Assembly: GCA_963842525.1 (NCBI GenBank)
Contig: CAWJGT010000018.1
Location: forward strand, 1-47,695
Direction of reading: 5' to 3'
Source: an uncultured Holophagales bacterium
GTDB taxonomy: Bacteria; Acidobacteriota; Thermoanaerobaculia; Multivoradales; UBA5704
Length of the DNA: 47,695 bases
In this document: positions 1 through 37,976 of the stretch, in pieces
Layout of the letters: the number at the start of each line of letters is the position of its first letter
Numbering within the stretch: the first letter of the stretch is position 1
Made by a program: the position numbers and the translations under genes
Notes under the pieces: generated by a model
Told to the model about the DNA's origin: nothing
The model's input: only the letters and a program-made list of their open reading frames with translations
Databases searched by the model: none

Positions 1-700
1 GCAGGCCCCGCGCTCGCCAGCACGCCGCGACCGACTCGGCAAAAGGGCGGCCAAGAACCTTTTCACACTTTTCCACCGTCGCTTCGCTGATCCCGTGAAT
101 TGCTAAAAGGTCGTCTCTTGTCGGCCTCTTCAGGTGCGCAATGCTTGTGATTCCTGCTGCGACAAGCCTCCGCGCACAGCCCGGCGTAATCCCCGCTTCG
201 ACCCATAGCCGTGCTTGCGGCACCTTGTCCAGAAACCTAAGAGGCCGCTGGCGCGCCGGCGCAGGTCTGCCGAAATGCAGGAGGTGCTCCACCTGTTTGG
301 TGCCAAGGCCTTTGATTTTCAGAAGGTCCGCGCGCCGTAGGCGCCGGAGCTGCTCCTCGCTGCGTATTCCAGCCACAGCCAGCTTGTGGGAAAGCCGCGC
401 CGATAGGCCACGCTCAATCCAATACGGCGCGTGCGATTCAAATGGCCGCCCCAGGTACCGTTCGAGCCGCTTTACAGTGAGCTCGCCGATCCCAGGAAGT
501 TCGAGCACCTGTTCGCGGGTGAGCCGCTCCACTTCGGCCACAGTGACGCCAGCCCCAGCGAGCCTCTTCGCTACGTCCGCGGGCAGCCGGCGGCGCCGGC
601 CCCATCCGTGCCCCGTCCGTGTCAGTCCGTGCCCGTCCGTGTCCGCCTCACGGCCCCCTGGGCCTCTCGTCGGTTTGGCGCGCATCACTGTCTGGTTCAT
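1..700 (-). CDS. Partial CDS (runs off left edge): protein with at least 3 tandem helix-hairpin-helix / RNAP alpha-CTD-like repeats
   Basis: Not in the ORF track; translated by hand. Open from ATG 700, which overlaps the stop of the upstream ORF (ATGA), to the window edge. Repeats: KRLAGAGVTVAEVERLTREQVLELPGIGELTVKRL / GLSARLSHKLAVAGIRSEEQLRRLRRADLLKIKGLGTKQVEHL / GITPGCARRLVAAGITSIAHLKRPTRDDLLAIHGISEATVEKC. Confidence 0.75.
   Translation of the reverse strand, partial: MNQTVMRAKPTRGPGGREADTDGHGLTRTGHGWGRRRRLPADVAKRLAGAGVTVAEVERLTREQVLELPGIGELTVKRLERYLGRPFESHAPYWIERGLSARLSHKLAVAGIRSEEQLRRLRRADLLKIKGLGTKQVEHLLHFGRPAPARQRPLRFLDKVPQARLWVEAGITPGCARRLVAAGITSIAHLKRPTRDDLLAIHGISEATVEKCEKVLGRPFAESVAACWRARGL
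604..645. repeat. (G)TCCGTG short tandem repeat, copy 1 (in frame inside the HhH-repeat gene)
   Basis: atccgtgccccgtccgtgtcagtccgtgcccgtccgtgtccg; the same motif recurs at 4526-4580 and 6659-6716. Confidence 0.7.
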
Positions 701-885
701 TTGCGAGCGCTCCCGAGCAGGTCCGAGTCCTCGATCACCAGTAACGCCTCTTGCCGGATCGTCGCTGCGCAACTCTCGCACCGTCGCCGCAGCATGTGAG
801 CTACCACTTGCTTGGCCTCTGTCCTCGCCGCTTCGCCCCGGGCGAATCGCTGCAGCACCGCTCTCTCCGGGTGTGTTGACGCCAT
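697..885 (-). CDS. Small stand-alone anti-sigma-like zinc-finger protein (62 aa)
   Basis: AGGAGG RBS 9 nt before ATG 885. HPERAVLQRFARGE...VVAHMLRRRCESC resembles the zf-HC2/ZAS H...CxxC motif. Coupled to the downstream gene. Confidence 0.6.
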   Translation of the reverse strand: MASTHPERAVLQRFARGEAARTEAKQVVAHMLRRRCESCAATIRQEALLVIEDSDLLGSARK

Positions 886-1079
886 GCCAAACATCCTCCT
901 GTCCTGCCGCGCCCCTCCCGCGGCAGGGCGAGGCTAAACCCGTTCATGCCCGCTTTTGGCAACGAATTTCGCAAACACCCCACCCCTGGGGTCCCGACTA
1001 AAATGTCTTTTCCCTTTGTCCCTAAAAAGCCGCCTGCGGCAACCTACTCTTATGGAGGAGAATCCTTGGGAGGAGAGAG

Positions 1080-2543
1080 TTGGAGAATTTGCGCGGAAAC
1101 CCTTCGCAGCTAGGCTTCGCCCTGGAGCTCCTCCTGGGAGCACACGGCTGGACCGGAGCGCGGCTTGCGGACGCTGCGGGTGTGGCCCCCGCCACGATTT
1201 CCGCTTTTGTCAACGCTGGCTTGAGCCGGGAGCGCCTCGAGGGCTCGCAGCGCTCATGGAGCTGGGCCCGGAAGAGGTCGAGCGCGCCGTCCTCGCCGCC
1301 CGGCTGGTAAAGCCGGACCCACCTTCTGCCAGCTCGCCGGTGGACCCCACACCCGAGCAGCGCCGCAGGGCCGAGAAAACCGCGGCCCAGGCGGCCTGCG
1401 AGATGGGTGACTTGGTCCTGGACCTCCGCCTCCAGGAGATCAGGCAGGAAAACGCCCGGGCGGCCCGTGAAGAAGGAAGGAGGCTCGCGCGCGAGCTTCT
1501 GAGCGATGCACCCGCAGACCAGCGGTACCTGGTCGAAAGCGATCCGGCGTATCAGCACTGGGGATTGGCCGTGGTCCTCTGCACCGAAAGCGAGGCCGCG
1601 GCACCGCGCGATCCCCGCCAGGCCCTGGCGCTGGCCGAGCTGGCCCTCTTCGTCGCCGATCACGTGGACGACAGCGTCTTCAAGCCCTGCCTCCAGGGCT
1701 GGTGTACCGGGCACGTCGCGAACGCTCACCGAGTCATCGGCCGCGATCTTCCCGGCGCTGCCACGGCCTTTGCTCGCGTCTGGAGCCTCTGGCACGAAGG
1801 CGAGGACACGGCGGGCCTGCTCTCCGAAGCACACCTGCTCCATTTGGAGGCCTCGCTGCGCAACGATCTGCGGCAAGTTGACGAGGCCCTCCGCCTTCAC
1901 AACGAGGCGCTGAAGAAAGCGCGCCCGGACGAGCGCGGTGCCATCCTGTTGAACAAAGCCTGTATCCTTCAGGTGGCTGGCGAGCACGAAGAGGCGCTTC
2001 AGATCCTCGCACAGGCGGCGCAGGCCATCGATGCCGAGCGCCAGCCGCGGCTGCTCTGTGTAGTGCGTTTCAACGAGGCCGCGAACCTGCTCCTGCTGGG
2101 CCGGGCCCGGGAGGCCGCTCCGATCATTGCCGAAGTACGCCTGCTGGCCGAGCGGCTGCGCAACAGCGAGGATCTTCTGAGAGCCTCTATGGCTGGAAGG
2201 AAACTGCGCCGCCGGCTTGGGCCAGAGGGAGGAAGCGCTCACCAGACTGGAGCAGGTGCGGCGCGAATTCGCAGCACGTGAAAACCCCTTCGACTATGCC
2301 CTGGCGAGCCTGGACATGGCGCTCTGCTATCGCGAGGAAGGGCGCTTTGCGGAAATCAAGGTGCTGGCGGGCGAGATCCTGGAAATCTTCAAGGCCCAGA
2401 AGGTGCACCGCGAGGCCCTCGCCGCGGTGATCCTTTTCCAAGAAGCTGCTGAGAAGGAGCAGGTCACTGGGGGGCTGGTCCGGCGCCTCCAGGGCTACCT
2501 CTCCAGGGCGAGGAGCAATCTTCAGCTTCGCTTCGAGGGCTGA
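1080..2543 (+). CDS. XRE-type HTH plus TPR-repeat regulator, paralogue 1 (apparent frameshifts at ~1243 and ~2185)
   Basis: Joins ORFs 1080..1310 (LGFALELLLGAHGWTGARLADAAGVAPATISAF, HTH), 956..2281 (TPR-like helices) and 2217..2543. The join at ~2185 is confirmed by alignment with paralogue 3026-4524. Confidence 0.8.
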
Positions 2544-2551
2544 GTGGAAAG

Positions 2552-2577
2552 GGGAGGGGTCATGGCGAGCCCCTCCC
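2552..2577. terminator. Hairpin between the convergent TPR gene and the peptide gene
   Basis: gggagggg-N10-cccctccc; no U-tract. Confidence 0.4.
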
Positions 2578-2593
2578 GGCAAGCAGGTCGCTG

Positions 2594-2899
2594 TTAGCTT
2601 CCGGGCACGCAGATGCCATTTGGGTCGAGCATGCAGCCATGGTCCACCGTAGAATGTGGCGCAACTGGCTCGCAAGGGCCATTGGGATCGATCCCACAGC
2701 CATGATCCGTGCAGGCGCCGTAGGGGTCGAGCCCGCAGCCATGCTCCGCCCAGGCGGCCGTGAGGGTGCCCCAGAGGCGTGCGAGGACGTCGAACAGCCG
2801 CGCCTCGGGGGCGGGCCCTGGCGCTGCCCAGGCGGGTGCGCACAACAGGGTGATCATCAGGAAGACGAGGAGGATACGGGCAAGTCGTCGATGGGCCAT
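2594..2899 (-). CDS. Secreted propeptide (101 aa) with three (D/E)HGCxxDPxGxC repeats
   Basis: AGGAG RBS before ATG 2899. Sec-type signal MAHRRLARILLVFLMITLLCAPAWA, a Trp-rich amphipathic segment, then EHGCGLDPYGAC, DHGCGIDPNGPC and DHGCMLDPNGIC. Confidence 0.85.
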   Translation of the reverse strand: MAHRRLARILLVFLMITLLCAPAWAAPGPAPEARLFDVLARLWGTLTAAWAEHGCGLDPYGACTDHGCGIDPNGPCEPVAPHSTVDHGCMLDPNGICVPGS

Positions 2900-3004
2900 A
2901 CCGGCTCCTGTGGAGGAGGCGGCCTTCTGCACGGCCGCCATGGCCGCGGTGGCGCCTCCGGCCTCTCCATGGTGCCCGGACCAGGCGAATATATCCAACT
3001 TCCG

Positions 3005-3020
3005 CCCTCACCGGTGAGGG
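3005..3020. promoter_or_regulatory. Perfect 16-bp palindrome CCCTCACCGGTGAGGG between divergent genes
   Basis: Seen directly; it overlaps the likely RBS of ATG 3026. Function is inferred. Confidence 0.4.
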
Positions 3021-3025
3021 GATCT

Positions 3026-4524
3026 ATGCCACAGGACAGAGGCGATCAGGAGAAGCAGCTTGGCGAGCCGGCGCTTTTTGGTGACTTCATCTCCTTCCTT
3101 CGTTGGCTGCCAGGAGAGTGGTCGCAGGTCCGCCTCGCCACCAAGGCCGGAATCGACCGCAGCGATCTTCGCCGCTATGAGAAGGGGAAGACGCGGCCGA
3201 GGGAGGCGACCTTCCAGTTGATCCGGGAGGCGGTCGGCGTCCCCCAGCGGCTCATCGGCTTTCTCCGCTGGTGCCACCGGCTGGTCCGCGGGGCGCTCGC
3301 CCTGGACGAGGTGCTCGAACCGCCCGCCACACCGGCCCTGACTGAAGCGTCCCGGGCGGCCGTCGTGGACATCGTGGAGAGGGCGCTGGCCCTGGGCCGG
3401 GCGGAGGAGGCGCTGTTGCGGAGCGCGCCGCGCCGGCTCGGCCCTCCTGCGGAGGAGGACCAGCAACGGGTCGAGGCTCTCTTCGAGAGGCTGAAGGCCG
3501 CTCCACCGGACAAGCAGCGCCTCCTCATCCGGCGTGCGCCGTCATACTGCGACCCGCTGCTCTGCCTGCACATCTGCAAGGTGAGTGAGCACATGGCGCC
3601 ACACGCCGCAAAGGAAGCCCTTGCGTTGGCGGAGCTGGCTCTCTTGATCGCCGCGCACGTCGAAGAGAGCGTCGTCAAGCCCCGCCTCCAGGGCTGGTGC
3701 ACCGCACACATTGCGAACGCTGAACGAGTGATCGGCCGCGACTTCCCCGGCGCTTTGGCGACCTTCGCCCGCGCCTGGCGCCTCTGGCACGAAGGGCAGG
3801 ACCCGGCGGGCCTTTTCTCCGAAGCGCACATGCTCCATCTGGAGGCTTCGCTGCGCAACGATCTGCGGCAGTTCGACGCGGCCCTCCGCCTTCACAACGA
3901 GGCACTGAAGAAAGCGCGCCCTGAGGAACGTGGCGGCATCCTGCTGAACAAAGCCTGTATCTTTCAGGTAAAAGGCGACCACGAAGAGGCGCTTCGAACC
4001 CTGGCCCAGGCGGCGCAGGCCATCGACGCCGCGCGCCAGCCGCGGCTGCGTTGCGTCCTCCGGTTCAACCAGGCGTCGAACCTGCTCTTGCTGGGCCGGG
4101 CCGGGGAGGCGGCACCGATCGTGGCCGAGGTTCGGGAGCTTGTCGAGCGACTCCGCAATAGCGAGGATCTTGTGAGGACCCTGTGGCTGGAAGGAAACTG
4201 CGCTGCAGGCCTGGGCAGAGGGACGAGGCTCTGCTCAAGCTGGAGCAGGTGCGGCACGAGTTCGAGGTCCGGGAGAATCCCTTCGACTACGCACTGGCGA
4301 GCCTGGACCTGGCGCTGCTCTACCGCGAGGTCGGCCGTTTCGCGGACATCAAGCTCCTGGCCGCCCAGATGGTGGAGATCTTCAAGGCCCAGAAGGTGGA
4401 CCGGGAAGCCCTGGCCGCGGTGCTTCTCTTCCAGGAAGCGGCGGAGAAGGAGCAGGTCACCGCCGGGCTGGTCCGGCGGCTCCAGGACCAGCTCTCCAAG
4501 GCGCGCGGCAGGGCCACCACATGA
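3026..4524 (+). CDS. XRE-type HTH plus TPR-repeat regulator, paralogue 2 (apparent frameshift at ~4216)
   Basis: WSQVRLATKAGIDRSDLRRYEKGKTRP is an XRE HTH. The C-terminal TPR region is closely similar to paralogue 1 and continues in ORF 4183..4524. Confidence 0.85.
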
Positions 4525-4525
4525 T

Positions 4526-4622
4526 CGTCCGCTCCGTCCGCTCCGTCCGCTCCGTCCGATTCCGTCCGTGCCAGGCCGTGCCGTCCTTTCTGTCCTTGTC
4601 GTCCCTGCTGTCCTTGCTGTCC
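4526..4622. repeat. Tandem short repeats (GTCCGCTCC)x3, TCCGTG and GTCC(C/T)TGCT
   Basis: Seen directly in the region after the TPR paralogue 2 stop. Confidence 0.7.
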
Positions 4623-4692
4623 CCACGCTAAACACTCGCACCGCCTTCCCCGTATACTCCCCTGCGAAGTTCCACCGCGGAAGGGAGCGCTC

Positions 4693-5671
4693 ATGCCTCT
4701 GCGACGCAAGCGGCTTACACCCGCTGAAAGACTGCGGAAGTTGGTGGATTCCGCACGCACAAGCCGCAATCGCGACCTGCCGACCATGCTCAGGCTGTCG
4801 AGCGCAGCCGTTGCTCTCGCTGAAGAGAAGATCGCCGAGCTTCCCGAATGACCTCGTCATCGCCGCATGGACGCAATTCGGGAATGCGCACCGAATCGCC
4901 GGCCGCTACGAGGTTGCGCAGCAAGCGCTGAATCGGGCAGCCGAGCTGCCGACCTCCGACACGGCAACCAAGGTCGCTCTGCTCGAGGTGACGGCCAACC
5001 TCCACCGCGATACAGGCAGGTACGAAAGTGCAGTGCACCTGCTGACCTCTGCCATCGCCGACCAGAAGTTGCTCGGCGACTCCACTGGCGAAGCCCGGTC
5101 TATGCATCTCCTTGGCCTCACCTATCTGGACTCCGGTGAGCCAGAGCGGGCGCTTTGCGCCTTTCAAACCGCCCTCGGCCTCCTGGGCGATGCACCTCTC
5201 GATGTCGTGGCTTCAACCGGTCATAGCCTCTTCAGAGCGCTCATTCAGGCCGGCCGGCTCTCGGCGGCAGCAGCGGCCCTGGAAGTCTTGGAGCCCTTCT
5301 ATCGCCGCCTCGCCTCCGCGCGTCTGGCCGCCAGGTGCGCCTGGGTGCGAGCCCGTCTATGGCGCAACCTGCTGGCGGTTCATCGCCGCCCGGCTTGCCT
5401 GCGAACGAGCCTCTACAAATTTCCCTACCGATTCGCGATCCCCCGAGCCCTCGCCACGGAGGCCCAGGCAACCGTCCCCCCTCTCCCGTTCGGCGTGGGG
5501 AGCGGCGCTCGCACGGGACAGGGGGCCAGTCGGGGAAGGTTCCGCGCGTCCCCCCTCTCCCGGCGGCGGACGGCTGGAAGATCGGAGCGGAGGCCAGGGC
5601 GTGCGGCCTACGCCGTGCTGCGTCCCAGGTCCTGCTCCAGCCGTTCGAGCCGGCTCTCCGTCTCGCTCTGA
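4693..5671 (+). CDS. TPR-repeat protein (apparent frameshift at ~4845; 3' end uncertain)
   Basis: AAGGGAG RBS and ATG 4693 (MPLRRKRLTPAERLRKLV...), then a frame change into AAWTQFGNAHRIAGRYEVAQQAL...EARSMHLLGLTYLDSGEPERALCAFQTAL, which is TPR-like. The last ~70 codons run through REP sequence. Confidence 0.65.
5476..5607. repeat. Two degenerate REP-type palindromic units
   Basis: They align to the units at 8406-8469 and 8276-8332 (ccccctctccc...gggagaggggg ccagggggtgagg). Confidence 0.7.
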
Positions 5672-5982
5672 CGCCCCTCCACGCGGCGGATCGCCTCCGT
5701 CAGCGACCTGATCAGCTCCTCGTCGGAAGGGCTTCGCTCCACCTTGGCTTCCGCAATGCCACCCAGAGCGGTCGCAAGGTCCTGCACCGTAGCCCCGTAG
5801 CCCACGAGCAGACGCCCGAGGTTCTCGAGAGTCGGGCGGGGCTTGTCGTTCTCCCAGCGTGACAGTTGCCCCTTGTCGAAGCCCAGAGCGTCGGACACCT
5901 CCGTTTGCGTCGCAAACCCCGCTCGTGCACGAAGCTGGGCGAGTGCTTTTCCAAGACCTTCGAAAGGGTCGGTCGCATCCAT
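5608..5982 (-). CDS. XRE-family (CI-like) repressor
   Basis: LGKALAQLRARAGFATQTEVSDALGFDKGQLSRWENDKPRPTLENL. C-terminal coiled coil, no S24 peptidase domain. Divergent from the Cro-like gene. Confidence 0.85.
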   Translation of the reverse strand: MDATDPFEGLGKALAQLRARAGFATQTEVSDALGFDKGQLSRWENDKPRPTLENLGRLLVGYGATVQDLATALGGIAEAKVERSPSDEELIRSLTEAIRRVEGRQSETESRLERLEQDLGRSTA

Positions 5983-5989
5983 GGAAGAC

Positions 5990-6018
5990 ATTCTAGATGT
6001 TGCAGAGCGCAAAAGCAA
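5990..6018 (-). promoter_or_regulatory. sigma70-type promoter for the repressor (probably leaderless mRNA)
   Basis: TTGCTT-17 bp-TAGAAT, then 7 nt to ATG 5982; no RBS. Confidence 0.65.
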
Positions 6019-6051
6019 GCCCCTGAGTTGCAGACCAGCCCAATTTCCCTC

Positions 6052-6081
6052 TTGACACTGTTGCTATATGGTGCATACAGT
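6052..6081 (+). promoter_or_regulatory. sigma70-type promoter for the early operon, overlapped by an inverted repeat
   Basis: TTGACA-18 bp-TACAGT, 7 nt to ATG 6089. CACTGT-N15-ACAGTG (6056-6082) spans the promoter. Confidence 0.65.
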
Positions 6082-6088
6082 GCTCTGC

Positions 6089-6346
6089 ATGACAATCGAT
6101 TGCCTCTGCACACAAGCATCCTTTGGTGAGCTGTTGCGGCGCTGGCGCCGCAATCGGGGTCTCAGCCAGGGCGATCTCGGCAAGCTCCTCGCTCCCGAGG
6201 TCCGGCACTCCACCGTGAGCTGCTGGGAAAACGGCGTCCGCCGCCCGTCATGGAAGTTCCTGGGGCAGATCGTCTCGATCACGGGCATTCCCGCGCATCT
6301 CGCTCTCGGGATCGATAGAGCCAGCCAGGAGAGCGGCCACCCATGA
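6089..6346 (+). CDS. XRE-family (Cro-like) regulator
   Basis: FGELLRRWRRNRGLSQGDLGKLL...STVSCWENGVRRPS. Alternative start at 6068. Confidence 0.85.
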   Translation: MTIDCLCTQASFGELLRRWRRNRGLSQGDLGKLLAPEVRHSTVSCWENGVRRPSWKFLGQIVSITGIPAHLALGIDRASQESGHP

Positions 6347-6657
6347 ACCTCGTGCACCTCTCCCTCCGCCGAGGCGAAGCCGTGGCCGAAGCCCGCCAGG
6401 TCGAAGGCTCCGACATCCTCTACTTCTGCGCGAAGGACTGGTGCCCGCATTACCAGGGCCAGCTCGGCATTCTCGCCGGTGCCGAGACCATGCATTGCGC
6501 CCTGATCCAGTACCCGCCCAACCAGATCTGCCAACCCTTCTACCTCGAAGTCGTCGAGGAGCTCGACAAGCAACGGCGAGCCACCTGGGAGCAGCGCCTC
6601 GCCGAAGCCGAGGCCTTCGAATCCGCCGTAGCCGCCGCCGCAGGAGCCACCGCATGA
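6343..6657 (+). CDS. Hypothetical protein (4 Cys)
   Basis: ATGA overlap with the Cro-like gene; AGGAG RBS. Confidence 0.7.
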   Translation: MNLVHLSLRRGEAVAEARQVEGSDILYFCAKDWCPHYQGQLGILAGAETMHCALIQYPPNQICQPFYLEVVEELDKQRRATWEQRLAEAEAFESAVAAAAGATA

Positions 6658-6658
6658 G

Positions 6659-6716
6659 CGTCCGTGTCTTCCATTCGTCCGTGCCAGTCCGTGTTGGTCC
6701 GTGTCCGTCCGTGTTC
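6659..6716. repeat. (G)TCCGTG short tandem repeat, copy 3
   Basis: gtccgtgtc...gtccgtgccagtccgtgttggtccgtgtccgtccgtgtt. Confidence 0.7.
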
Positions 6717-6733
6717 TTCCAGGGGGTGAGGGG

Positions 6734-7399
6734 GTGATCCACCACCAAGCCCCCCTCCCGCCCGGCTGGCACCTCGCCGACGAGGCCACCCTCCCCGGCG
6801 GCAAGTCCATCTCGGGCACCGCCGCCCGCGTCTACAACCTTCTCCTCGAGACGAGCCGGCGTGCCCACCGTTGGCAAGTCGGCCGGCATCACGCTCCCGC
6901 GGGTTGGGTGCCCACCTGGGTCCTGCGAGAGCCCTGGGCCGGGGGAGCCGCCGGAGACCGCCGCCTGCGGGACCTCCGCGAAGAAGGCCTCGCCATCGAA
7001 AGCCAGCGCTTCACCGCGGACGACGACACCCCGGCCTCCGCCTCCTGGCTCTGGCGTCTGGCCTCGCCGGCCAGCAGCTCGCCCCACCGCCCCACGCCGG
7101 CAGCTCAAGCCGCCGCGCCGCTGCAAGGCATCGCCATCCGCTTCATCGCGGCAAGCGAGGCTCCCAGCGCGATGGACATCTCGCCGGGAGCCTCGTCGCC
7201 GCTCGCGCCGTCCTTCGGCGCCTGCGACGACGAAGCGTACCGCCGAGAGCTGCTCGAAGCCTTCCACGCCGGCCGGCTCGTGACCTACCTGAAGGGCCAC
7301 ACCGAATGGCGCCTCTGGGCAGACCCTGCCGCCGCCTACGACCCGCGCCCCGTCCTCCGGAGCGCTCTCTCCAAGCTGGGGGCCACCCTTGGGGCTTGA
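6734..7399 (+). CDS. Hypothetical protein, possibly with an N-terminal winged helix
   Basis: In the operon, with a GTG start after GAGGGG. The segment AARVYNLLLE...GDRRLRDLREEGLAIES resembles phage wHTH proteins (weak). Confidence 0.6.
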   Translation: MIHHQAPLPPGWHLADEATLPGGKSISGTAARVYNLLLETSRRAHRWQVGRHHAPAGWVPTWVLREPWAGGAAGDRRLRDLREEGLAIESQRFTADDDTPASASWLWRLASPASSSPHRPTPAAQAAAPLQGIAIRFIAASEAPSAMDISPGASSPLAPSFGACDDEAYRRELLEAFHAGRLVTYLKGHTEWRLWADPAAAYDPRPVLRSALSKLGATLGA

Positions 7400-8252
7400 G
7401 CACCTCGCCGCCGTCTGGGAGCACTCCTGCCAGAGCGGCTCCCACCTCATCGTCCTCGTCGCCGTCGCCAGCTACTCCGACCACAACGGCGAGTGGACCA
7501 TCGACCAGGCTACGCTGCAGCGCCGCGCCCGCCTCGGCAATCGCCGCGTCCGGCAGATCCTTACGGAGCTGGTCACCGCCGGCGAGCTCGCCATCACCAG
7601 CCACCACGGCCGCGGCAAGCTTTCCACCTACCGCCTTCTGATCGGGAAGGAAAACTGGAAGCAGACAGCCACTTTTCCCGACCAAAAAGAGGAAGCCCGC
7701 AGCCAGTTTTCCGAAGAAAAACTGGAAGCCGACTGCCAGTTTTCCGGCGAGAAACTGGAAGCCCGCAGCCAGTTTTCTGGCGAAAAACTGGAAGCCGACT
7801 GCCAGTTTTCTCACCCCCCGGTCCCCCCTTTTCCCCCAAACCCCCATATCCCCCCTAACCCCCCACAAGAAGAAGCAGAAACAAAAAATCAGGAGACCTT
7901 CGGTCTCCGGCCCCTGTCGGGTCCGCAATCTGCGATCTCTCGAGTGAATTTTCTGCTCGCTGAAGCGGGAGTCCCGCTGCCGAGCCCTGCCCAGATCGGC
8001 GTCTGGTCGAAGACCCTTGGAGGCGTCGAGCCGCTCCTCGTCCTGTTGGGCCGGCTGGTCCAGGCCGGCCTCGCCAACAAGCGCGAGCCCGCCGCCTACA
8101 TCCACCGCGTGGTCATGGAGCAGGCCGCCCGGCGCGAGCCGGCCAGGCCAATGGATGCCCGGGCCGGCCGCGAGCTCCTGAGAGCCGCAGGAGCCGACGA
8201 AACCCGCTGGCAGCAAGCCCTCGAAATCATCAACAACACGGAGGAGTCATGA
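7389..8252 (+). CDS. Phage-type replication initiator (N-terminal HTH) containing origin iterons
   Basis: HLIVLVAVASYSDHNGEWTIDQATLQRRARLGNRRVRQILTELVTAGEL; internal 11-aa repeats; sits upstream of the loader and helicase. Confidence 0.8.
   Translation: MGLEHLAAVWEHSCQSGSHLIVLVAVASYSDHNGEWTIDQATLQRRARLGNRRVRQILTELVTAGELAITSHHGRGKLSTYRLLIGKENWKQTATFPDQKEEARSQFSEEKLEADCQFSGEKLEARSQFSGEKLEADCQFSHPPVPPFPPNPHIPPNPPQEEAETKNQETFGLRPLSGPQSAISRVNFLLAEAGVPLPSPAQIGVWSKTLGGVEPLLVLLGRLVQAGLANKREPAAYIHRVVMEQAARREPARPMDARAGRELLRAAGADETRWQQALEIINNTEES
7651..7810. repeat. Five iterons (period 33-34 bp), putative replication origin
   Basis: AAAACTGGAAGCnnnnnGCCAGTTTT; GGAAGC cores at 7657, 7691, 7724, 7757 and 7790. 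Most units carry the internal inverted repeat AAAACTGG/CCAGTTTT. Confidence 0.85.
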
Positions 8253-9133
8253 CCCACGAAACGATCGGCATGCGTCCCCCCTCTCCCGGCGGGGGGCGGT
8301 CGGAAGATGGGAGAGGGGGCCAGGGGGTGAGGACCCATTCCCCCCTCGCCCGGGCGGAGGGAGTGCGGATGGGAGAGGGGGGCCAGGGGGGTGAGGGTTT
8401 GCCTTCCCCCTCTCCCGTTCGGGGTGGAGGACCGGTGGCCGCACGGGAGAGGGGGCCAGGGGGAGAGGGCTCGTTCGGGGGCCGGCCCTGGATCTGCCGT
8501 CAGTGCGGAGAAGACCAGGTCGCTTTCGGCGCCATCCCCGAAGACCTCCTCTGCCACACCTGCCACGACGCCCAGAGAGCCGCGACCGCCTTCACCGAAG
8601 CCGACGCCGGCATTCCCAAGCTCCTGCGCGGCCTCACCCGCGAGAGCTGGTCCACCCACTTCGAGCGCCCCTGGCCCCAAGCCTTGGAGCACTGGACCGG
8701 CACCCCCCGCTGGGTTGCCATGTGGGGTCCCACCGGCACCGGCAAGACCGGCATCGCCACCATCCTCCTCGCCGAGCACCTGCGCACCGGCCGGCGCGGT
8801 CGCTGGATCTCCGGCCCCGAGCTGGCCAGGCGCATCCAGCGCGACCTCACCACCGCCGAAGAGGTCCTCGCCCCTCTCCTCGTCACCCCGCTGCTCGTCC
8901 TCGACGAGCCCCTCTCCGGCTCCAACGCCGACTGGTACATGGACCGGCTGATCCTGATCACCCGCACCCGCGACGAGAGCTGTCTGGCCACCGTCATCAC
9001 CAGTCAGCTCCTCCCCGAGCTGCTGCGCAATCCCAACGGCGCCATGCCGCCGTCCCTGCTCTCGCGCTGGCTCTCCGGCCTCCACGTCCGCACCGGCGGC
9101 ACCGACGTCCGCCTGAGAAAGGCAAGCCGATGA
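8249..9133 (+). CDS. DnaC/IstB-like ATPase (helicase loader) with a REP-derived N-terminal insert
   Basis: CRQC...CHTC zinc motif, Walker A GPTGTGKT, Walker B LLVLDE; ATGA-coupled on both sides. Confidence 0.85.
   Translation: MTHETIGMRPPSPGGGRSEDGRGGQGVRTHSPLARAEGVRMGEGGQGGEGLPSPSPVRGGGPVAARERGPGGEGSFGGRPWICRQCGEDQVAFGAIPEDLLCHTCHDAQRAATAFTEADAGIPKLLRGLTRESWSTHFERPWPQALEHWTGTPRWVAMWGPTGTGKTGIATILLAEHLRTGRRGRWISGPELARRIQRDLTTAEEVLAPLLVTPLLVLDEPLSGSNADWYMDRLILITRTRDESCLATVITSQLLPELLRNPNGAMPPSLLSRWLSGLHVRTGGTDVRLRKASR
8276..8469. repeat. Three tandem REP-type palindromes inside the DnaC-like CDS
   Basis: Units at about 8276-8332, 8340-8397 and 8406-8469: ccccctc(t/g)ccc-loop-gggagagggggccagggggtgagg. 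Confidence 0.85.
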
Positions 9134-10476
9134 AGCGCAAGCTCGTCCTGCCCCACAGCGAAGAAGCCGAAAAAGCCGTCCTCGGCGCCCTCCTCCTGGA
9201 ACCCATGCGCATCGCCCAGGTGCGCACCCGCCTGGAGCCCCGCGACTGGTTCCTCGAGCGCCATCGCGTCCTCTACCAGGCCCTGCTCGACGTCGCCGAT
9301 ACCGGCACCACGCCCGACCTCCTCACCGTCCAGGCCCACCTCCAGCAGGCCGGAGCCCTGGACACCATCGGGGGCCCGGCCTACCTCGCCACCCTCGACG
9401 TGGACCTGCCCGACCTCGACCGGCTCGACGAATACGCCGAAATCGTCCGCGAGAGGAGCGTCCGGCGAGACCTCATAGCCGGAGCCAAGAAGACCATCAT
9501 CGAGACCGCGACCACGACCCGGCCGGTCGCCGAGCTGCTCACCGGACTGCGCGACACCGCCGACAACCTCCTCGGCCGAGCCGCCCGGGTCCGTTGGACG
9601 GGAGCCGGCAACGTCCTCGACCAACTCCTGCTCGCCATCGAGAACGGCCCGCCCGAGGCCCTCCAGGGACTCACCAGCAGCTACCCGGGCTGGGACCGCC
9701 TCGGACCCGGCTTCCTGCGCGGCGGCCTCTACGTCCTCGCCGGAAGGCCGGGAATGGGCAAGACCTCCCTTGCTCTCGACCTCACCCGCCACGTCGCCGT
9801 GGACCTCCGGCGGCCGGTTGGAGTCTTCTCCCTGGAGATGCGTTCCGACGAGTTGGGCTTGAAGCTCGGCTCCGCCGAAGCCGACATCGCCGCCCGCTAC
9901 ATGAGAGCCGGCCACCTCTCCGGACGGCAATGGCAAGACCTCTACGCAGCCACCCGGCGCATGCTGGACGCCCCTCTGTACCTCGACGACACCCCAGGGC
10001 TCGTCCTGCGCGATCTGGAGGCGAGGGCCTGGTGGCTCAAAGCCCGCCATCCCGACCTCGCGCTCCTGGTCATCGATTACCTCCAGCTCGTCAATACCGG
10101 CATTCGTTTCGAGCAGCGCCGGCTGGAGATCGCCCACATCACCCGCCGCCTCAAAGAGCTGGCCGGTGAGCTGGGCGTGGTGGTCCTCGTCCTCTCCCAG
10201 CTCAACCGAGAGCTGACCCGCCGGAGCGATCCCAGACCCCAGCTCGCCGACCTGGCCGAATCCGGAGCCATCGAGCAGGCCGCCGACCAGGTCGCCTTCA
10301 TCCACCGTCCCGAAGCCTATGACCCCGACAACGAGACCCTGCGAGGCCTCGCCGAGGTCATCGTCGCGAAGCACCGGCACGGGCAGACCGGCACCGTCGA
10401 GCTGGCCTGGACCGGCTCCACCACCTCCTTCCGCAACCGAGTGACCCTGGCCCCGGCCGTCCCGGATCCCTTCTGA
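9130..10476 (+). CDS. dnaB: Replicative DNA helicase DnaB (element-encoded)
   Basis: PHSEEAEKAVLG, AGRPGMGKT, FSLEM, IDYLQL, LSQLNR, DLAESGAIEQAAD, AKHRHG. Confidence 0.97.
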   Translation: MKRKLVLPHSEEAEKAVLGALLLEPMRIAQVRTRLEPRDWFLERHRVLYQALLDVADTGTTPDLLTVQAHLQQAGALDTIGGPAYLATLDVDLPDLDRLDEYAEIVRERSVRRDLIAGAKKTIIETATTTRPVAELLTGLRDTADNLLGRAARVRWTGAGNVLDQLLLAIENGPPEALQGLTSSYPGWDRLGPGFLRGGLYVLAGRPGMGKTSLALDLTRHVAVDLRRPVGVFSLEMRSDELGLKLGSAEADIAARYMRAGHLSGRQWQDLYAATRRMLDAPLYLDDTPGLVLRDLEARAWWLKARHPDLALLVIDYLQLVNTGIRFEQRRLEIAHITRRLKELAGELGVVVLVLSQLNRELTRRSDPRPQLADLAESGAIEQAADQVAFIHRPEAYDPDNETLRGLAEVIVAKHRHGQTGTVELAWTGSTTSFRNRVTLAPAVPDPF

Positions 10477-10892
10477 TGCGCATCCGGCCCGACCAGGCGC
10501 GCGCCGCCCTCTCCCGCGTCAATCCTGCCCGCAGGCGGGCCGGCAGACCCGTGGGGCTGCGCGACTGCGCCATCCTGGCCCTCGCCGCGGCCGGCATGAG
10601 CGCCGAAGAGATCGCCGGAGTGCGTGCCTCCGACATCACCCTGGAGCGGGGAAACCTCCATATCGCGCTGCAGCGCGACGGCATCGTCTGGTACGTCATC
10701 CTGCCCTCCGACCTGGGCGGCCGGTTGTTCGCCTGGCTGACCGAGCGTCGCTTGTGGGCTGCCGACAAGCCGCTCTTCACCGGATTCCGGGGGCGAGGGC
10801 CGTTCTCGGTCAAGCACATCTACGACGTCCTCTACGGCTATGGCGCCCGGCGGACGAGGTCTCGCCGCTACCGGAGGCCGTCCGCATGCTAG
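10476..10892 (+). CDS. Truncated tyrosine-recombinase-like protein lacking catalytic residues
   Basis: GLRDCAILALAAAGMSAEEIAGVRASDI matches XerC/D box I but has Ser where the catalytic Arg lies. It includes ...KPLF... and ends with no HxxR or catalytic Tyr box. Confidence 0.65.
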   Translation: MRIRPDQARAALSRVNPARRRAGRPVGLRDCAILALAAAGMSAEEIAGVRASDITLERGNLHIALQRDGIVWYVILPSDLGGRLFAWLTERRLWAADKPLFTGFRGRGPFSVKHIYDVLYGYGARRTRSRRYRRPSAC

Positions 10893-11737
10893 TCGCCCTC
10901 TATGCCCGCACCGCGGGCACCGGCGAGCAGGTCCTCGCCGACCTGGCCGCCTACGCGGCCCGGAAAGGCTGGATCGTAGCCCTGGAGCACACAGACCAAG
11001 GCCCCTGGCACCAGGGGCCGCGAGACGGCCATAAGCGCCTCGTAGTGGCCGTGAGGGCCAAGGCCGTCCAGGCCGTCCTCGTGCCCACCCTGGGCCACCT
11101 GGCGCGCTCCCTGCGCCATCTGACGGGCCTGGGCCAGCTCCTCGCCGTCCAGGGCGTCGCCCTGATCGCCACCGAAGAAGGCCTCGACACCACCGACCCG
11201 GCCGGGGCCATCCGCTGGCGAGACTGGCTCGACCTCTCCGCCCGCCTCGACCGCCAGCTCCGTGCCGAAGCCGCCAAGCTGGCCCGCCTGCGCACCCCAG
11301 GTGAAACCTGGGGCCGCCCCCAGGCCGCCATCAATCCCGAGGAGCTCCTGGACTGGTGGGAAGGCCGCCGAGGCCGCCACCCGCTCACCCTGAGGGACCT
11401 CGCCCGCAGACTCGGAGTCTCCGAAGCCACCGCCCGCAAGCACCTCCAAGCCCTGCGCCAGGCTGGCCGAGTCGATGACGGAGCCCGCACCCGGGCCCTG
11501 GCCGCCCGAGCCGGCCACCGCCGAGGGGGCCGGACCGCGAACCCCCTCGACGACGTCGTCCTGATCGCCGCCTGGAACCTGCAGCTCCAGGCCGCTCACC
11601 GGCGAGGCACCGAGCCGAGCATCGCCACCCTCGCCCGTCACCTGCACGTCAGCCGGAGCCGCGTCCGCATTCGGCTCCGCGAGCTGGGCCTGCTGGAGCA
11701 GGAGCAAGCTGCCCCCGGAAGTTCCTCCGTGGCGTAA
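10886..11737 (+). CDS. Serine resolvase-like protein with degenerate active site and two C-terminal HTHs
   Basis: GGAGG RBS. VALYARTA (consensus YxRVS), LGHLARS (consensus LDRLxRS), EGLDTTDPAG, WGRP. HTHs LRDLARRLGVSEATARKHL and IATLARHLHVSRSRVRIRL. Confidence 0.8.
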   Translation: MLVALYARTAGTGEQVLADLAAYAARKGWIVALEHTDQGPWHQGPRDGHKRLVVAVRAKAVQAVLVPTLGHLARSLRHLTGLGQLLAVQGVALIATEEGLDTTDPAGAIRWRDWLDLSARLDRQLRAEAAKLARLRTPGETWGRPQAAINPEELLDWWEGRRGRHPLTLRDLARRLGVSEATARKHLQALRQAGRVDDGARTRALAARAGHRRGGRTANPLDDVVLIAAWNLQLQAAHRRGTEPSIATLARHLHVSRSRVRIRLRELGLLEQEQAAPGSSSVA

Positions 11738-11757
11738 ACAAAGCGTGGATTTGTGAT

Positions 11758-11934
11758 ATGATTTCTCTGACTGAGTGCCGTAAGATCCTGGGTGAGGCGG
11801 GGCGCGACCTCTCCGATGCCGAGTTGGAGCACCTCCGCCAGTTTCTTTACGGCCTCGCCGATATTAGCGTCAAGCACTTCCTGGCCAAGAGGAACAAGGC
11901 GGCCCAACCCCCCGACAAGGAGCCTACGGGATGA
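11758..11934 (+). CDS. 58-aa protein coupled to the integrase (candidate accessory or directionality factor)
   Basis: Hand translation: MISLTECRKILGEAGRDLSDAELEHLRQFLYGLADISVKHFLAKRNKAAQPPDKEPTG. Its TGA overlaps integrase ATG 11931. Confidence 0.7.
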   Translation: MISLTECRKILGEAGRDLSDAELEHLRQFLYGLADISVKHFLAKRNKAAQPPDKEPTG

Positions 11935-13452
11935 CCTCACTCCGGGCGATCATCTACTGTCGCGTCAGCAGCAAAGAGCAGACCCAGAACCTCTCCCTCC
12001 CCGTTCAAGAAGAGCAGTGCCGGGCCTTCTGCAGCCAGAGCGGCTGGGAAGTGGACAGGGTCTTCCTGGAGCGCGGCGAGTCCGCCAAGACCGCCGACCG
12101 CACGGAAGCTCCAGGAGGCCCTGACCTACCTGCGTGAGCAGAACAAGCGCTCCGCCAAGATCCACGTCTTTGTGGTCACCAACGTGGACCGGTTTGCCCG
12201 CGACTCCTTCGACCACGCCATCATCCGCCGGCACCTGGCGGCGCTCGGCATCACCCTCAGGGCGGTGAGCCAGCCCATTGACGAGACCCCGGCCGGCAAG
12301 TTTATGGAGGGCATCTTCGCGGCCCTCTCCCAATTCGACAACGAAGTCCGCGGCGGCCGGACCAAAGCCGGCATGCAGGAAGCGTTGCGCCGCGGCCAAT
12401 GGGTCTGGAAACCGCCTCTGGGCTACCTTCCGGACGGCAAGACCATGCAGCTCGACCCCGAGCGGGCGCCGCTCGTACGGCTCGGCTTCGAGCGCTTCGC
12501 CTCGGGCCTCTACACCCGCGTGCAGGTCCTGGAGGACCTCACCACGCGCGGCCTTCGCACCTTGAAGGGCCGCGAGCTGACGGCGCAGAAGTGGGGCGAG
12601 ATGCTCGCGAACCGGCTCTACATCGCCCGGATCTCGCAGTCTGCCTGGGCCATCGACACCGCCGGCAACTGGCCGCCACTGGTAGACGAGGACACCTTCT
12701 GGCGCTGCCAGAGCCTCCTCCGCACGAACGGCCTGATCGTGCCGAAGGAGCGCAACAATCCGGACTTCCCCCTCCGGGGCTTTGCGACGTGTGCCCACTG
12801 CGGGAAGCCGCTCACGGGCTCCTGGTCCCAGGGAACGACCCGGCGCTACGCCTACTACCACTGCCCGCCCAAGGCCCGCTGCCGCCGGACGAACATTCCG
12901 CGTCACGAGTTGGAGGGCCAATTCCTGACCCTCCTTGAGCGCCTCCGTCCCCGCCCCGAGTTCCTGGATCTCTTCCGTTCCATAGTCCTGGACGTCTGGA
13001 AGGGCCAGAAAGACGACGTCGCCGCCCAGAGGGCCGCTGCCGAGCGCAAACTTGCCGAGCTGAAGCAGCGCAAAGAGCTGCTCGTCGAGGCCTTCATCTA
13101 CCAGCGAGCGATCGACCAGGACACCTATCGGCAGCAGCTCGACAAGCTCAGCGAATCCATGGCCCTCGCAGAGATAGGCCGCAACGCCCTGAGGACCGAA
13201 GAGCTGGACATCGAGGCCGTCCTGGACTTCACCGAGAGGGTCGCCCTGAGCGCCTCCCGCCTCTGGCTGGAAGCCGACCTAGAGCAGCGCCAGAGGTTCC
13301 AGTCGCTCCTCTTCCCACAAGGTCTGCAGGTCGAAAATGGAGAGGTTCGAACTCCCGTAAGTCCCTCATTCTTCGAGGACTTACGCCACTTTACACCCCT
13401 CGACGAACGTTTGGTATCCCCAACGGGATTCGAACCCGTGTTGCCGCCTTGA
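11931..13452 (+). CDS. Large serine recombinase (integrase); one apparent +1 frameshift at ~12106
   Basis: IYCRVSSKEQ (catalytic Ser), VDRFAR, PPLGY, recombinase domain, zinc ribbon CAHCG...YYHC...C, coiled coil. The C-terminus VSPTGFEPVLPP is antisense tRNA sequence. Confidence 0.95.
13356..13385. repeat. Inverted repeat CGTAAGTCC-N12-GGACTTACG next to the tRNA 3' end
   Basis: Seen directly; candidate att-arm site or tRNA terminator. Confidence 0.55.
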
Positions 13453-13487
13453 AAGGGCGGAGTCCTAGGCCTCTAGACGATGGGGAC
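13412..13487 (-). tRNA. tRNA-Glu (anticodon TTC), integration site
   Basis: GTCCCCATCGTCTAGAGGCCTAGGACTCCGCCCTTTCAAGGCGGCAACACGGGTTCGAATCCCGTTGGGGATACCA; 76 nt, cloverleaf, encoded CCA. Confidence 0.97.
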
Positions 13488-13522: not shown

Positions 13523-16500
13523 CTAATGTACCACAGTTTCGGAGCCCGCCTCGGCTCCGACGGGCGCCTCGGCTTCCGCGGCAGAGCCCGGCGGCGGGGG
13601 CAGAAAGCCGGTGCGGACGAAGTAGTCGAGGTAGATGGTCAGCAGGCCGGCATCGATGTCGGGGCAGGTGATGCCCGAGCCCTCGATGGCGGCGCGGGTG
13701 TTGCGGTCGTCGAAGAAGATCTGCTTCCTCTTGCCGACTCTCCCTTCCTGCTGGGCGATGGCGGCATAGGCTTCGAAGTTCGCCACCACAGGCGCGAAGG
13801 GGGCGAGGGCGTTGTCGGTGTCGGTCTGCAGCCGCTCGACGGCATAGTGCTCCCACTCTCCCGACTTCATCCAGGTCAGCGGATAGCCGTATTCGCGGAG
13901 AAAGGCGAAGACGGTCCGCCAGCGCGGCTGCCGCGGATGCGGGAACTGGTAGACCCGGTTCAACCCCTCTTCCCGTAGGGAGATGTGGATGAGGGCAGCC
14001 GCCACGTAATCGACCGGTGCGATCTCCATGTCCTGCTCGCCGTCGGGCGTCACTCCCATCTGAATACACCCCTTGAGCATGTTCCAGACCATGTCTCGGG
14101 TGTTGCAGACGCCGGTCTTCGTATGGCCCGAGAGGACGGTCGGCCGGTAGATGGAGACCGGGATGCCGCGCGAGCGCGCGATCTTGCAGAGCTGCTCGGA
14201 GACCCACTTGGTCTCGCCGTAGCCGCCGAAGAGGCCGGAAAGGCTGTCGGTCTCGTCGTCCTCGTAGACGGTCGGATCGTCCCGATAGCCGTACTCGACC
14301 TCGGGCACCGCCGTGATGCTGGAGATGAAGTGCATGGGCTTGGTGCGCACCAGGGCGGCCAGACGCAGGGCCTCGACGGTGCCCAGGACGTTGGACGGCT
14401 TCAAGACCTTGTAGGGATAGGTGAAATTGACCCAGGCGCCGTTGTGGTAGACCGCGTCCACCCGGACGGCCAGGTCTAGGAAGGCCTCTTCGGTGAGCCC
14501 GAAGCGCGGCTCGCCTAGGTCTCCCGGAATGGCCACGAGGCGCTCGGTCATTCCATCCCGCCAGACTTCGCGCTCTTCCAGCACGGTCCGCAGCCTGCGG
14601 AAGGCCTGGTCGGCATCGGCCGCACGCACGAGGCAGTGGACGCGGGCCGAGGTCTGCCGCAGCAGCTCGTCGAGCAGGAAGGTGCCGAGGAAACCGGTCG
14701 CTCCAGTCAGGAAGACCTCGGACGGATCGCCGACGGGTACCCGCGGCCCCTCCGGTTGGATCGCCGGGTCGAGCACGGCCTCGGCCCGCAGGTCCATGAC
14801 CTCGCGGGTGGCGGCGAGGGCCTCCATCCCCTCGCGCTGGAGGAGCTCGATCGCCTGGACCAGCTCGGCCACGGTCGGCGCCTCGAAGAGGTGGCGCATG
14901 GGGAACTCGATGCCGAAGGCCTGCCGGAGGCGGACGATGAGCTGCGGCGCCAGCAGGGATTGACCGCCCAGGGCGAAAAAGCTGTCGTGGATGCCGATCG
15001 GCTCGACACCCAAGAGATCCTGCCAGACCTCGACGAGCTGCCGCTCCATCTCGGTACGCGGTGCGGCATAAACATTGCGCAGGTTGGCCGGCCGCTCGTG
15101 GCGGTCGAGGCCAGGCGCCGGGGCCGGCATCTCGGGGTGCCCCTCGGACAGCGGCGCTGCCAGCTTCGGAGTCGGGGGCGCGACCGCCCGCTCGATCCAG
15201 TAGCGCTTGCGCTCGAAGGGATAGGTCGGGAGCCGGAGCTTGCGGCGGTTCTCGTGAGCGGCGAAGCCGGCCCAGTCGATTGGCAGGCCGGCGAGCCAGA
15301 GACGGGCGAGGGCGCCGAGCAGATAGGCGGTGTCCGGCTGCCGGTCGTAGGCGGGCCGGAGGGTGGAGACTGCGACCGGGGCTTCCCTCCCGGCGAGTTG
15401 GAGGGCGAGTGTGGTCAGGCCCTGCCCGGGACCCACTTCGACCAGGACGCGCGCAGGCTCGCGCAGCATCTCGGCCAGGGAGTCGCCGAAACGCACCGGC
15501 TCGACCAGGTGGCGCGCCCAGAAGTCCGGATCGGTGGCCTGTTCGGCGGTGATCCAGGTACCGGTCACGTTGGAGAGATAGGGGATCTCTGGCGCCGATA
15601 GCCGGGTCTGCCGGAGCAGATCGCGCAGCTCGTTGCGCAGCGGCTCCATCATTCGCGAGTGGAAGGCGTGAGTGGTCGGGAGCCGCCGGGTGGCGACACC
15701 TTTCTCCGCCAGCTCGGCGGCCAGAGCGTCGATCGCATCGGGTGGACCGGCGAGCACCGAGACGGCGGGACCGTTGATCGCGGCCAGAGAGATCCGATCG
15801 GAGACCAGACGTCGGGCCTCCTCCTCGAGCAGCGCCACGGAGAGCATGGCGCCGGCCGGAAGCTGGCTGATCTTCTTGGCTCGGCGGGCGACCAGGCGCA
15901 GGGCGTCCTCGAAGGGGAGGACGCCGGCCAGGCAGGCGGCCGTGTATTCACCCAGGCTATAGCCCACCAGGGCACGCGGCAGGATGCCCCACTCCATCAG
16001 CACCCGCGCCAGCGCGTGCTCGACGGCGAAGACCGCCGGCTGGGCGATCTCGGTGCGGTCGAGGGGGCCGGCCGCGGCGATCTCGCCGCTCCGGCCCAGC
16101 ATGGCGCGCAAATCGGGTCCGGAACCGGACGCCTCTTCGACCCCCGGAGGGAAGAGGGCACTCATGAGATCCAGCCCTTCGCCGCGCAGGAGCTGAGCGG
16201 CGCGGTCGAGCTCGGCGCGGAAGGTCGGCTCGTGGCGGTAGAGGCCGAGAGCCATGCCCACATAGTGGTCGCCCAGGCCCGGGAACAGGAAGGTCACCGG
16301 CCGGTCGGCGTTCTCCTGGACGCTCTCCAGGAGGCGCTTCGGATCGCGGGTACGAAGAGCGGCCAGGGTGTCCTCGCGGTCACGGCAGACCAGCACCCTT
16401 CGGTGCGGAAAGGTGCGCCGGCCGGTCTGGATGGTGTGGGCGACGTCCGCAAGACCCGCGTCTGGATGCGCCTCCAGCCACTCCACCAGGTTGTCGGTGG

Positions 16501-17896: not shown

Positions 17897-17909
17897 CGGT
17901 GATCCCTTC

Positions 17910-31210: not shown

Positions 31211-37972
<6,762 letters not shown>

Positions 37973-37976
<4 letters not shown>

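Follow-up and report, generated by a model that had tools for sequence, protein, structure and literature searches.

A 47,695-nucleotide stretch of DNA from an uncultured Holophagales bacterium (contig CAWJGT010000018.1 of assembly GCA_963842525.1; the whole stretch is referred to here as the window) carries a three-gene cassette in which the gene for a small exported protein with repeated Cys-bracketed loops lies between two genes for regulators that combine an XRE-type helix-turn-helix (HTH) with tetratricopeptide repeats (TPRs). This gene cassette is real and conserved, and it is probably new. It is highly probable that the peptide and its regulators form a functionally coupled module. That they also work by a full ligand-receptor signalling mechanism is a more tentative reading, to which we give a probability of roughly 0.4. 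An initial annotation of the window, made from its letters alone, had proposed such signalling by analogy with the RRNPP systems.

Read from the minus strand, the precursor is ordered MAHRRLARILLVFLMITLLCAPAWA, then APGPAPEARLFDVLARLWGTLTAAWA, then EHGCGLDPYGAC-TDHGCGIDPNGPC-EPVAPHSTV-DHGCMLDPNGIC-VPGS. Residues 1-25 (MAHRRLARILLVFLMITLLCAPAWA) are predicted to be a Sec-type signal peptide that ends in AWA and is cleaved before the following Ala. Residues 32-53, with W43 and W50 inside, are modelled as a helix by AlphaFold2 (AF2) with a predicted local distance difference test (pLDDT) score of about 77-83, and the model is confident for the signal peptide and this helix only. Three repeats of the pattern (D/E)HGCx(L/I)DPxGxC, termed loop cassettes here (EHGCGLDPYGAC, DHGCGIDPNGPC and DHGCMLDPNGIC), are followed by a short tail. 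A ribosome-binding AGGAG precedes the ATG of the gene by 5 nt. Translation and the family profile described below thus confirm the signal-peptide protein of 101 amino acids (aa) with three Cys-loop cassettes that the initial annotation had described.

A word-based protein search returned 4 close relatives of the peptide. The profile made from the window peptide and these four closest relatives was searched against 1.84 billion cluster representatives, and matched 1007 of them at E ≤ 1e-3, of which 268 reach E ≤ 1e-10. With 1007 cluster representatives at E ≤ 1e-3, the peptide match is far beyond chance. The anatomy of the family was taken from 149 listed matches (P0124-P0272), which share a common plan of a signal peptide, an 'L..LW..LT..W' helix and repeats of the form (D/E/N/K)-x-G-C-x-(I/L)-D-P-x-G-x-C. 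Among these listed matches the number of loop cassettes per protein is 2 in 16, 3 in 93, 4 in 36 and 5 in 4, with lengths under 170 aa in all except three. Of 72 family members, 69 carry a hydrophobic stretch at the N terminus, and the AxA-type cleavage motif is conserved. No Pfam or NCBIfam model matches the peptide family, and in the ESM Atlas the peptide matches unnamed Acidobacteriota clusters only. In a larger protein, P0220 (783 aa), a Cys-poor repeat of the form x-(I/L/M)-DP-(N/D)-G-(K/R) occurs dozens of times, and the cassette profile matches 8 stretches of the protein; the DPxG turn unit is therefore used beyond the small Cys-loop family.

To follow the peptide gene across genomes, species representatives were scanned with a single peptide-only pattern, GCx[IL]DP[HN]G[GIV]C, derived from a 15-sequence alignment, and the matches were confirmed by tblastn; the phyletic range obtained in this way is a lower bound. 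The scan yielded 60 peptide loci in 38 assemblies, all of them Acidobacteriota, with the labels Thermoanaerobaculia, Thermoanaerobaculaceae, Thermoanaerobaculum, Holophagales or unclassified. At this lower bound, the gene cassette as a kind belongs to the Thermoanaerobaculia/Holophagales, soil and sediment Acidobacteriota. Hidden Markov models (HMMs) for both the regulator family and the peptide were then run on the six-frame open reading frames (ORFs) of the 60 loci. A regulator homologue directly adjoins the peptide gene in 58 of the 60, on the opposite strand every time, and regulators stand on both sides in 53, a count that takes in the three peptide genes in tandem of L029 and the tandem modules of L042 and L047. 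Five of the remaining seven loci end at a contig edge 5-223 nt from the peptide gene (L019, L033, L041, L054 and L056). L019 has no divergent partner although 8 kb of sequence is present on that side, L060 has on one side a more distant partial regulator copy only, and L058 is a degenerate 51-aa ORF with one loop cassette and without a regulator. The initial annotation would have been contradicted by peptide genes unlinked to TPR genes. The linkage seen here is the opposite of that outcome, and the proposed placement of the system outside the Firmicutes holds at every locus.

The arrangement is also regular in its details. Of the 57 loci with over 700 nt of sequence on the convergent side, 56 have a full-length convergent partner; a full-length divergent partner occurs in 25 loci, and elsewhere the divergent gene encodes a shorter HTH protein of about 110-275 aa or is frame-split. 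The convergent ends are 20-135 nt apart in most loci, and the divergent starts 84-280 nt apart. Sixteen assemblies carry 2-4 gene cassettes each, and the residues of the loop cassettes differ from copy to copy. At L029:7045-8327 the peptide genes are tandemly triplicated, and L003, L031, L042 and L047 contain head-to-tail modules, with an extra peptide gene past the divergent regulator.

The two regulators of the window, G1 and G2, are paralogues. The stop of G1 faces the stop of the peptide gene (the convergent or C-type partner), and G2 is the divergent or D-type partner. The Pfam HTH_3 model scores 29.5 bits in G2 against a cut-off of 23 bits. Matches to TPR models in the window copies lie below the Pfam threshold; at the level of the family, TPR_12 and HTH_3 are each found in 59 of 60 homologues. 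A profile search of the PDB with the regulator matched the HTH domains of HipB and C.BclI. In the AF2 model of P0012, a near-identical public copy of G2 (mean pLDDT 89), an HTH at residues 14-70 is joined by a helical linker (74-158) to a TPR superhelix (161-495). Just 2 of 60 homologues reach a hydropathy of ≥1.6 over a 19-residue window, and the regulators therefore have no evident membrane segment. Asn231, Asn308 and Asn348, separated by TPR periods, are nearly invariant in the family. In TPR peptide binders such as Rap, NprR and PlcR, and in other TPR/ARM binders, ladders of Asn residues typically contact the peptide backbone. By this analogy, the conserved ladder is a lead that may point to peptide binding by the TPR domain.

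The initial annotation had called two flanking XRE-HTH and TPR genes. The paralogous pair is present, but the annotation had missed that neither gene is a continuous ORF in the window. Single-base frameshifts change the frame of G1 near 1243 and near 2188 and that of G2 near 4216, and the family HMM matches G1 at 1098-1253, 1241-2188 and 2187-2537 in three frames. P0012 is intact at 499 aa, with one D/N substitution besides. The near-identical public copy of G1, P0050, is a 400-aa truncation that has the 2188 break only and an intact HTH end, and a G1 orthologue on another contig, P0048, is intact at 487 aa. Because P0012 is intact and P0050 shares the 2188 break only, at least two of the three frame breaks are private to the window sequence, where they may be assembly errors or recent decay. 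Frame overlaps also occur in the downstream TPR gene (near 4850) and in the polyketide synthase (PKS) and non-ribosomal peptide synthetase (NRPS) ORFs, a sign that the window may carry indel errors. The NRPS/PKS ORFs overlap in different frames, for example 36408-38273 with 31207-37968, which suggests further frame breaks there.

The divergent region between the peptide gene and G2 is organized in a conserved manner. Besides the palindrome next to the G2 start and the AT-rich box listed in Table 1, the latter being the near-palindrome TGGATTAATTCACC that occurs only once in the window, it holds a GGCACCATG box, the GC dyad GCGGCCA-TGG-CGGCCG and the AGGAG of the peptide gene. The same elements in the same order are found in the divergent intergenic regions of other loci: a TCAC-N-GTGA-type palindrome directly upstream of the divergent regulator start, the AT-rich near-palindrome, a GGCACCATGT box, the GC dyad GCGGCCA-N-GGCCGC and an AAGGAG ribosome-binding site. 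Within the dyad, 4-5 bp are conserved, and 5-bp pairing is kept in 31-37 of 37 sequences. These conserved palindromes and boxes are plausible operator and promoter elements. A sigma-70 promoter scan of 850-4750 returned a sole site at 4629-4658 and nothing in the divergent region; a convincing terminator was likewise not found in 850-4750. An RNA structure in the peptide leader is unsupported, as the window leader folds no better than shuffled sequences (z = -0.35). The hairpin in the 50-nt spacer between the convergent stops folds at -28.1 kcal/mol (z = -1.5), a value that 16 of 200 shuffles equal and that is insignificant by itself; it could conceivably act as a bidirectional terminator. Tandem repeats of 9-10 nt, of the GTCCGTGTCA and CGTCCGCTC types, occupy intergenic 605-643, 4526-4622 and 6677-6715, the second of them starting directly after the G2 stop, and could be REP-like or terminator-associated.

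The regulators and the peptide carry traces of a shared history. In the tree, the D-type and C-type regulators of the window's subfamily form sister clades with parallel branching. Outside this subfamily the two types pair by locus, which indicates that duplication or conversion has recurred and that the gene cassette evolves as a unit. Within the peptide, no position varies more from gene to gene than x1, the residue that follows Gly-Cys: in the 198 precursors that have two or more strict loop cassettes, its identity is 0.098 between genes versus 0.442 within a gene. After normalization, x1 and the -2 position reach 0.38-0.40 versus 0.21-0.27 at the other variable positions, a modest contrast. 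The two gene cassettes L007 and L009, from one metagenome-assembled genome and 89% identical in DNA, illustrate the pattern, in that all three x1 codons are changed from CAC to AAC (His to Asn) and the neighbouring x2 residues differ among the loop cassettes. Concerted change at x1 beside differing x2 residues argues against simple homogenization.

The layout invites comparison with the RRNPP systems (PlcR-PapR, NprR-NprX, Rap-Phr, PrgX and Rgg-SHP), in which a cytoplasmic receptor with an XRE-type HTH and a TPR superhelix is encoded beside the gene for an exported precursor, with several paralogous pairs per genome that are sometimes on mobile elements. The TPR-type cytoplasmic receptor, the N-terminal XRE-type HTH of the PlcR, NprR, PrgX, Rgg and AimR classes, and the adjacent gene for an exported propeptide are all found in the present family. 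An RRNPP precursor of 15-60 aa gives rise to a linear 5-10-mer, whereas the precursors here have about 90-160 aa and contain 2-5 Cys-bracketed DPxG loops plus a helix, and, unlike in RRNPP systems, the peptide gene here stands between two regulators on the opposite strand. Relationship at the sequence level was sought separately. No RRNPP family is among the 25 Pfam families listed, out of 35, for the 60 homologues, and the sole RRNPP-related match in the PDB profile search is RapH (E = 4e-4), over ~90 residues of generic TPR. A Foldseek search with the P0012 model placed RapJ-PhrC (4gyo) at rank 6 (E 1e-5; TM 0.64 by target), with the phi3T Rap-pheromone and RapF-PhrF complexes (8rst, 4i9c) ranked lower. 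For this predicted structure, similarity to Rap-pheromone complexes is generic and no better than that to eukaryotic LGN TPR domains. A predicted complex of P0012 residues 140-499 with peptide residues 26-101 scored 0.01 against a mark of 0.32; with an uncertain peptide fold and no controls, this result counts neither way. The RRNPP analogy of the initial annotation therefore stands for layout and domain logic, and its placement of the host outside the Firmicutes is correct, but the family does not belong to RRNPP by receptor homology or by taxonomy.

Individual RRNPP-type systems offer closer parallels for some of these features. In activator-repressor form, the paralogues Rgg2 and Rgg3 of Streptococcus pyogenes share short hydrophobic pheromones (SHP) encoded divergently beside them, a possible model for the D-type/C-type pair; unlike in that system, one peptide gene lies between both regulators here, and the peptide chemistry is another. 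Two papers describe RRNPP for Firmicutes (PMC10075063; PMC9765709), and a third describes several pheromones per propeptide, with tandemly duplicated Phr, in phage Rap-Phr systems (PMC11343458). These tandem Phr propeptides likewise place multiple candidate signals in one exported precursor; they are linear peptides freed by extracellular proteases in Bacillus, whereas the present precursors hold Cys-x7-Cys repeats. Full-text searches of the literature gave nothing that joins RRNPP, or XRE-tetratricopeptide regulators, with Acidobacteria or Acidobacteriota. The three papers found to join Thermoanaerobaculia, quorum sensing and peptide are, by their titles and the openings of their abstracts, microbiome surveys.

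These observations lead us to the following working model. The TPR domain would have the exported product as its cognate ligand, either whole or cut between loop cassettes. Through binding to palindromes of the shared divergent promoter region, the regulators would control the expression of the peptide and of themselves. The resulting circuit, RRNPP-like in its logic, would provide peptide-receptor feedback or signalling between cells. The hypervariable yet within-gene concerted x1 would serve as the specificity residue, which would let several orthogonal gene cassettes coexist in one genome. Taken to its fullest extent, the model would describe a pheromone family independent of RRNPP and the first in a Gram-negative phylum, with several disulfide-closed 9-residue DPxG loops per precursor, x1 as pherotype, two antagonistic HTH(-TPR) readers, orthogonal duplicates and an occasional bias of CI/Cro on integrative elements. 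In this complete form the proposal is speculative, and we hold it with less confidence than the signalling mechanism itself.

A number of results weigh against signalling. Within the precursor, conservation is strongest in the post-signal helix, where W43 and W50 are nearly invariant, and is lower in the loop cassettes, for which the AF2 model has low confidence (pLDDT 44-59). The divergent partner is without a TPR domain in roughly half of the loci, and both receptor genes of the window are frame-broken. As regards RRNPP, the precursor is 2-3 times the length of an RRNPP propeptide, no RRNPP-specific Pfam or NCBIfam model matches the receptors at E ≤ 1, the TPR domains of LGN/Pins occupy Foldseek ranks 1-5 above Rap, and no PlcR, NprR, AimR or PrgX is among the Foldseek matches listed. 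The host, too, differs from that of RRNPP: Acidobacteriota are a Gram-negative phylum, and Sec export would hence place the protein in the periplasm. By Pfam, the 104 ORFs that flank 12 of the loci have unrelated functions, among them ATP synthase, purine synthesis, GatB, histidine kinases and various peptidases; none of them is a recurrent enzyme, protease, maturase or transporter. Between the L007 and L009 receptors, 40 of 67 differences fall within residues 276-425, but positive selection was rejected since this cluster is also high in synonymous divergence (dS 0.71) and the ratio of nonsynonymous to synonymous divergence (dN/dS) is 0.25-0.35 throughout; the high dS points to a recombination mosaic under purifying selection. 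No experiment or paper was found that bears on the peptide family.

Alternatively, the mini-protein could be not a signal but the output, a periplasmic or secreted effector with antimicrobial, metal-binding or surface-active properties, and the HTH(-TPR) pair its dedicated activator and repressor, with TPR domains that sense another cue. Such an effector would be expected to carry the export signal that nearly all members have, its paired cysteines would fit periplasmic disulfides, and membrane activity is conceivable for the conserved amphipathic Trp helix. Many loop cassettes are rich in His, Cys and Asp, with His at x3 in 156 of 576 and at x1 in 50 of 576, but His is not conserved, so that metal binding cannot be general. 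A divergent partner that often lacks the TPR domain resembles a plain repressor, and fast diversification with several paralogues per genome fits bacteriocin-like loci; yet no immunity, export or processing gene is conserved alongside at the 12 loci, and a full-length TPR sensor kept in nearly all assessable loci and co-diversifying with the peptide exceeds what a simple repressor needs. We regard an effector role as a serious alternative, though one that falls well short of an even chance. An unlikely alternative is that the TPR domain binds the unexported precursor, through its signal peptide or Trp helix, so that the regulator reads export flux. A parallel exists in type III secretion, where IpgC and MxiE form a TPR chaperone/co-activator pair. 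This secretion-feedback switch would suit a Gram-negative host, as neither crossing of the outer membrane nor re-import is required, and helix 32-53 is both the best conserved and the best predicted part of the precursor. It leaves the repeats, the conserved scaffold of the loop cassettes and the within-gene concerted x1 unexplained, however.

The remaining alternatives turn on the neighbourhood. The initial annotation had placed the system about 1 kb from a CI/Cro switch and suggested that it could act in the manner of arbitrium (AimR-AimP-AimX of Bacillus phages), where an HTH-TPR receptor and a secreted propeptide lie near a lysis-lysogeny region; here, it would serve the decision-making of a temperate phage or integrative element, reporting element density and biasing CI/Cro. 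The distance is correct, as a divergent pair of CI/Cro-like HTH_31 genes begins 1.08 kb past the G2 stop. Together with what follows, an O-like initiator, a DnaC-like loader, DnaB helicase, an invertase and a large serine integrase at tRNA-Glu, the pair makes positions 5608-13487 look like a small integrative replicative element. CI/Cro-like genes also adjoin the gene cassette in L020 and L031, and DnaC/DnaB-like genes in L007 and L020. These are only 3 of the 60 loci, however, and in L020 the gene cassette is inverted relative to the CI/Cro block. The 12 of 12 other loci sampled have chromosomal housekeeping flanks; the gene cassette stands by itself and is chromosomal in most loci. PHROGs detected no virion genes in the window, L007, L020 or L031. 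Searches by tblastn gave no match for receptor and peptide in 50,697 phage records or for the receptor in 72,556 plasmid records, and, unlike for arbitrium, no AimR homology or AimX equivalent was identified. The arbitrium idea is thus weak. Such a role is conceivable for the element of the window, and improbable overall, but it is not the general role of the family. Least probable of all is a precursor of a ribosomally synthesized and post-translationally modified peptide (RiPP) that would be matured by enzymes from another part of the genome. The repeated core-like loop cassettes behind a conserved helical 'leader' would agree with this, but a Sec signal peptide is atypical of RiPP precursors. 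No co-located maturation enzyme or recognition-element protein was found at the 12 sampled loci or within about 5 kb on each side in the window, where the statement of the initial annotation that no modifying enzyme lies nearby was upheld. The NRPS/PKS genes of the window (13.5-41.7 kb) are situated on the far side of the integrase and tRNA, and other loci do not have them.

The features of the window are collected in Table 1. The third TPR gene, which lies between the gene cassette and the CI-like gene, accompanies the CI/Cro block rather than the gene cassette at L020:11528-12412 and in L031 at about 12484-13368. Next to the convergent regulator is a gene for a helix-hairpin-helix/RNA-polymerase-alpha-CTD-like repeat protein (2-781, minus strand), and a helix-hairpin-helix-repeat protein is also a neighbour in 6 of the 60 loci (L004, L007, L013, L014, L031 and L042). 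Far from the gene cassette, a TPR_12 protein without an adjacent peptide gene (43216-44076, plus strand) is 42% identical to the ORF 3335-4786 of L029. A large hybrid NRPS/PKS gene cluster extends over 13523-41731 on the minus strand. A reading of the locus as a defence system was dropped, as PADLOC gave generic HTH matches only (capH, RmrA, HTH_VI).

Table 1. Positions of the gene cassette, its control elements and other features in the window
Feature	Position	Strand	Basis or detail
G1, XRE-HTH and TPR regulator, convergent (C-type) partner	1080-2543	+	translations, family HMM
GC-rich 9-bp hairpin in 50-nt spacer between convergent stops	2552-2577	.	RNA fold
Peptide precursor gene, 101 aa	2594-2899	-	ORF translation
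Loop-cassette repeat at DNA level, 39-nt period, 2.1 copies	2684-2766	-	tandem-repeat search
Divergent control region, peptide gene/G2, 126 bp	2900-3025	.	sequence, comparison across loci
AT-rich box TGGATATATTCGCC	2984-2997	-	sequence
Perfect 16-bp palindrome, CCCTCACC followed by GGTGAGGG, just upstream of G2 start	3005-3020	.	sequence
G2, XRE-HTH and TPR regulator, divergent (D-type) partner	3026-4524	+	translations, Pfam HTH_3, AF2
Third TPR gene, without HTH, frame-broken	4693-5671	+	
Divergent CI/Cro-like HTH_31 pair	5608-6018; 6068-6346	-; +	
O-like initiator	7389-8252		inner 33-nt iterons, 4.8 copies, 7651-7810
Large serine integrase	11935-13452		gene end overlaps tRNA-Glu(ttc)
tRNA-Glu(ttc)	13412-13487	-	
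NRPS/PKS: KS-AT-ACP-reductase	13523-18175	-	
NRPS/PKS: C-A-T modules	17910-21326; 21323-31561 (three modules); 37973-41731	-	
PKS/NRPS hybrid	31207-37893	-	

Peptide signalling through TPR receptors is regarded as a hallmark of Firmicutes and their phages, and Gram-negative bacteria are thought to use small-molecule autoinducers. Acidobacteriota are an abundant and poorly cultured soil phylum. If the signalling mechanism proposed here is true, the strategy of a peptide read by a cytoplasmic receptor would have arisen independently in this phylum, which would raise the question of how the peptides cross two membranes and would add disulfide loops to the chemistry of such signals. If the product is an effector instead, these exported mini-proteins, each served by dedicated regulators, would still make up a large unannotated family of at least about 1000 clusters, one that merits definition as such. 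In either case the gene cassette is small and self-contained, and hence directly testable in a heterologous host.

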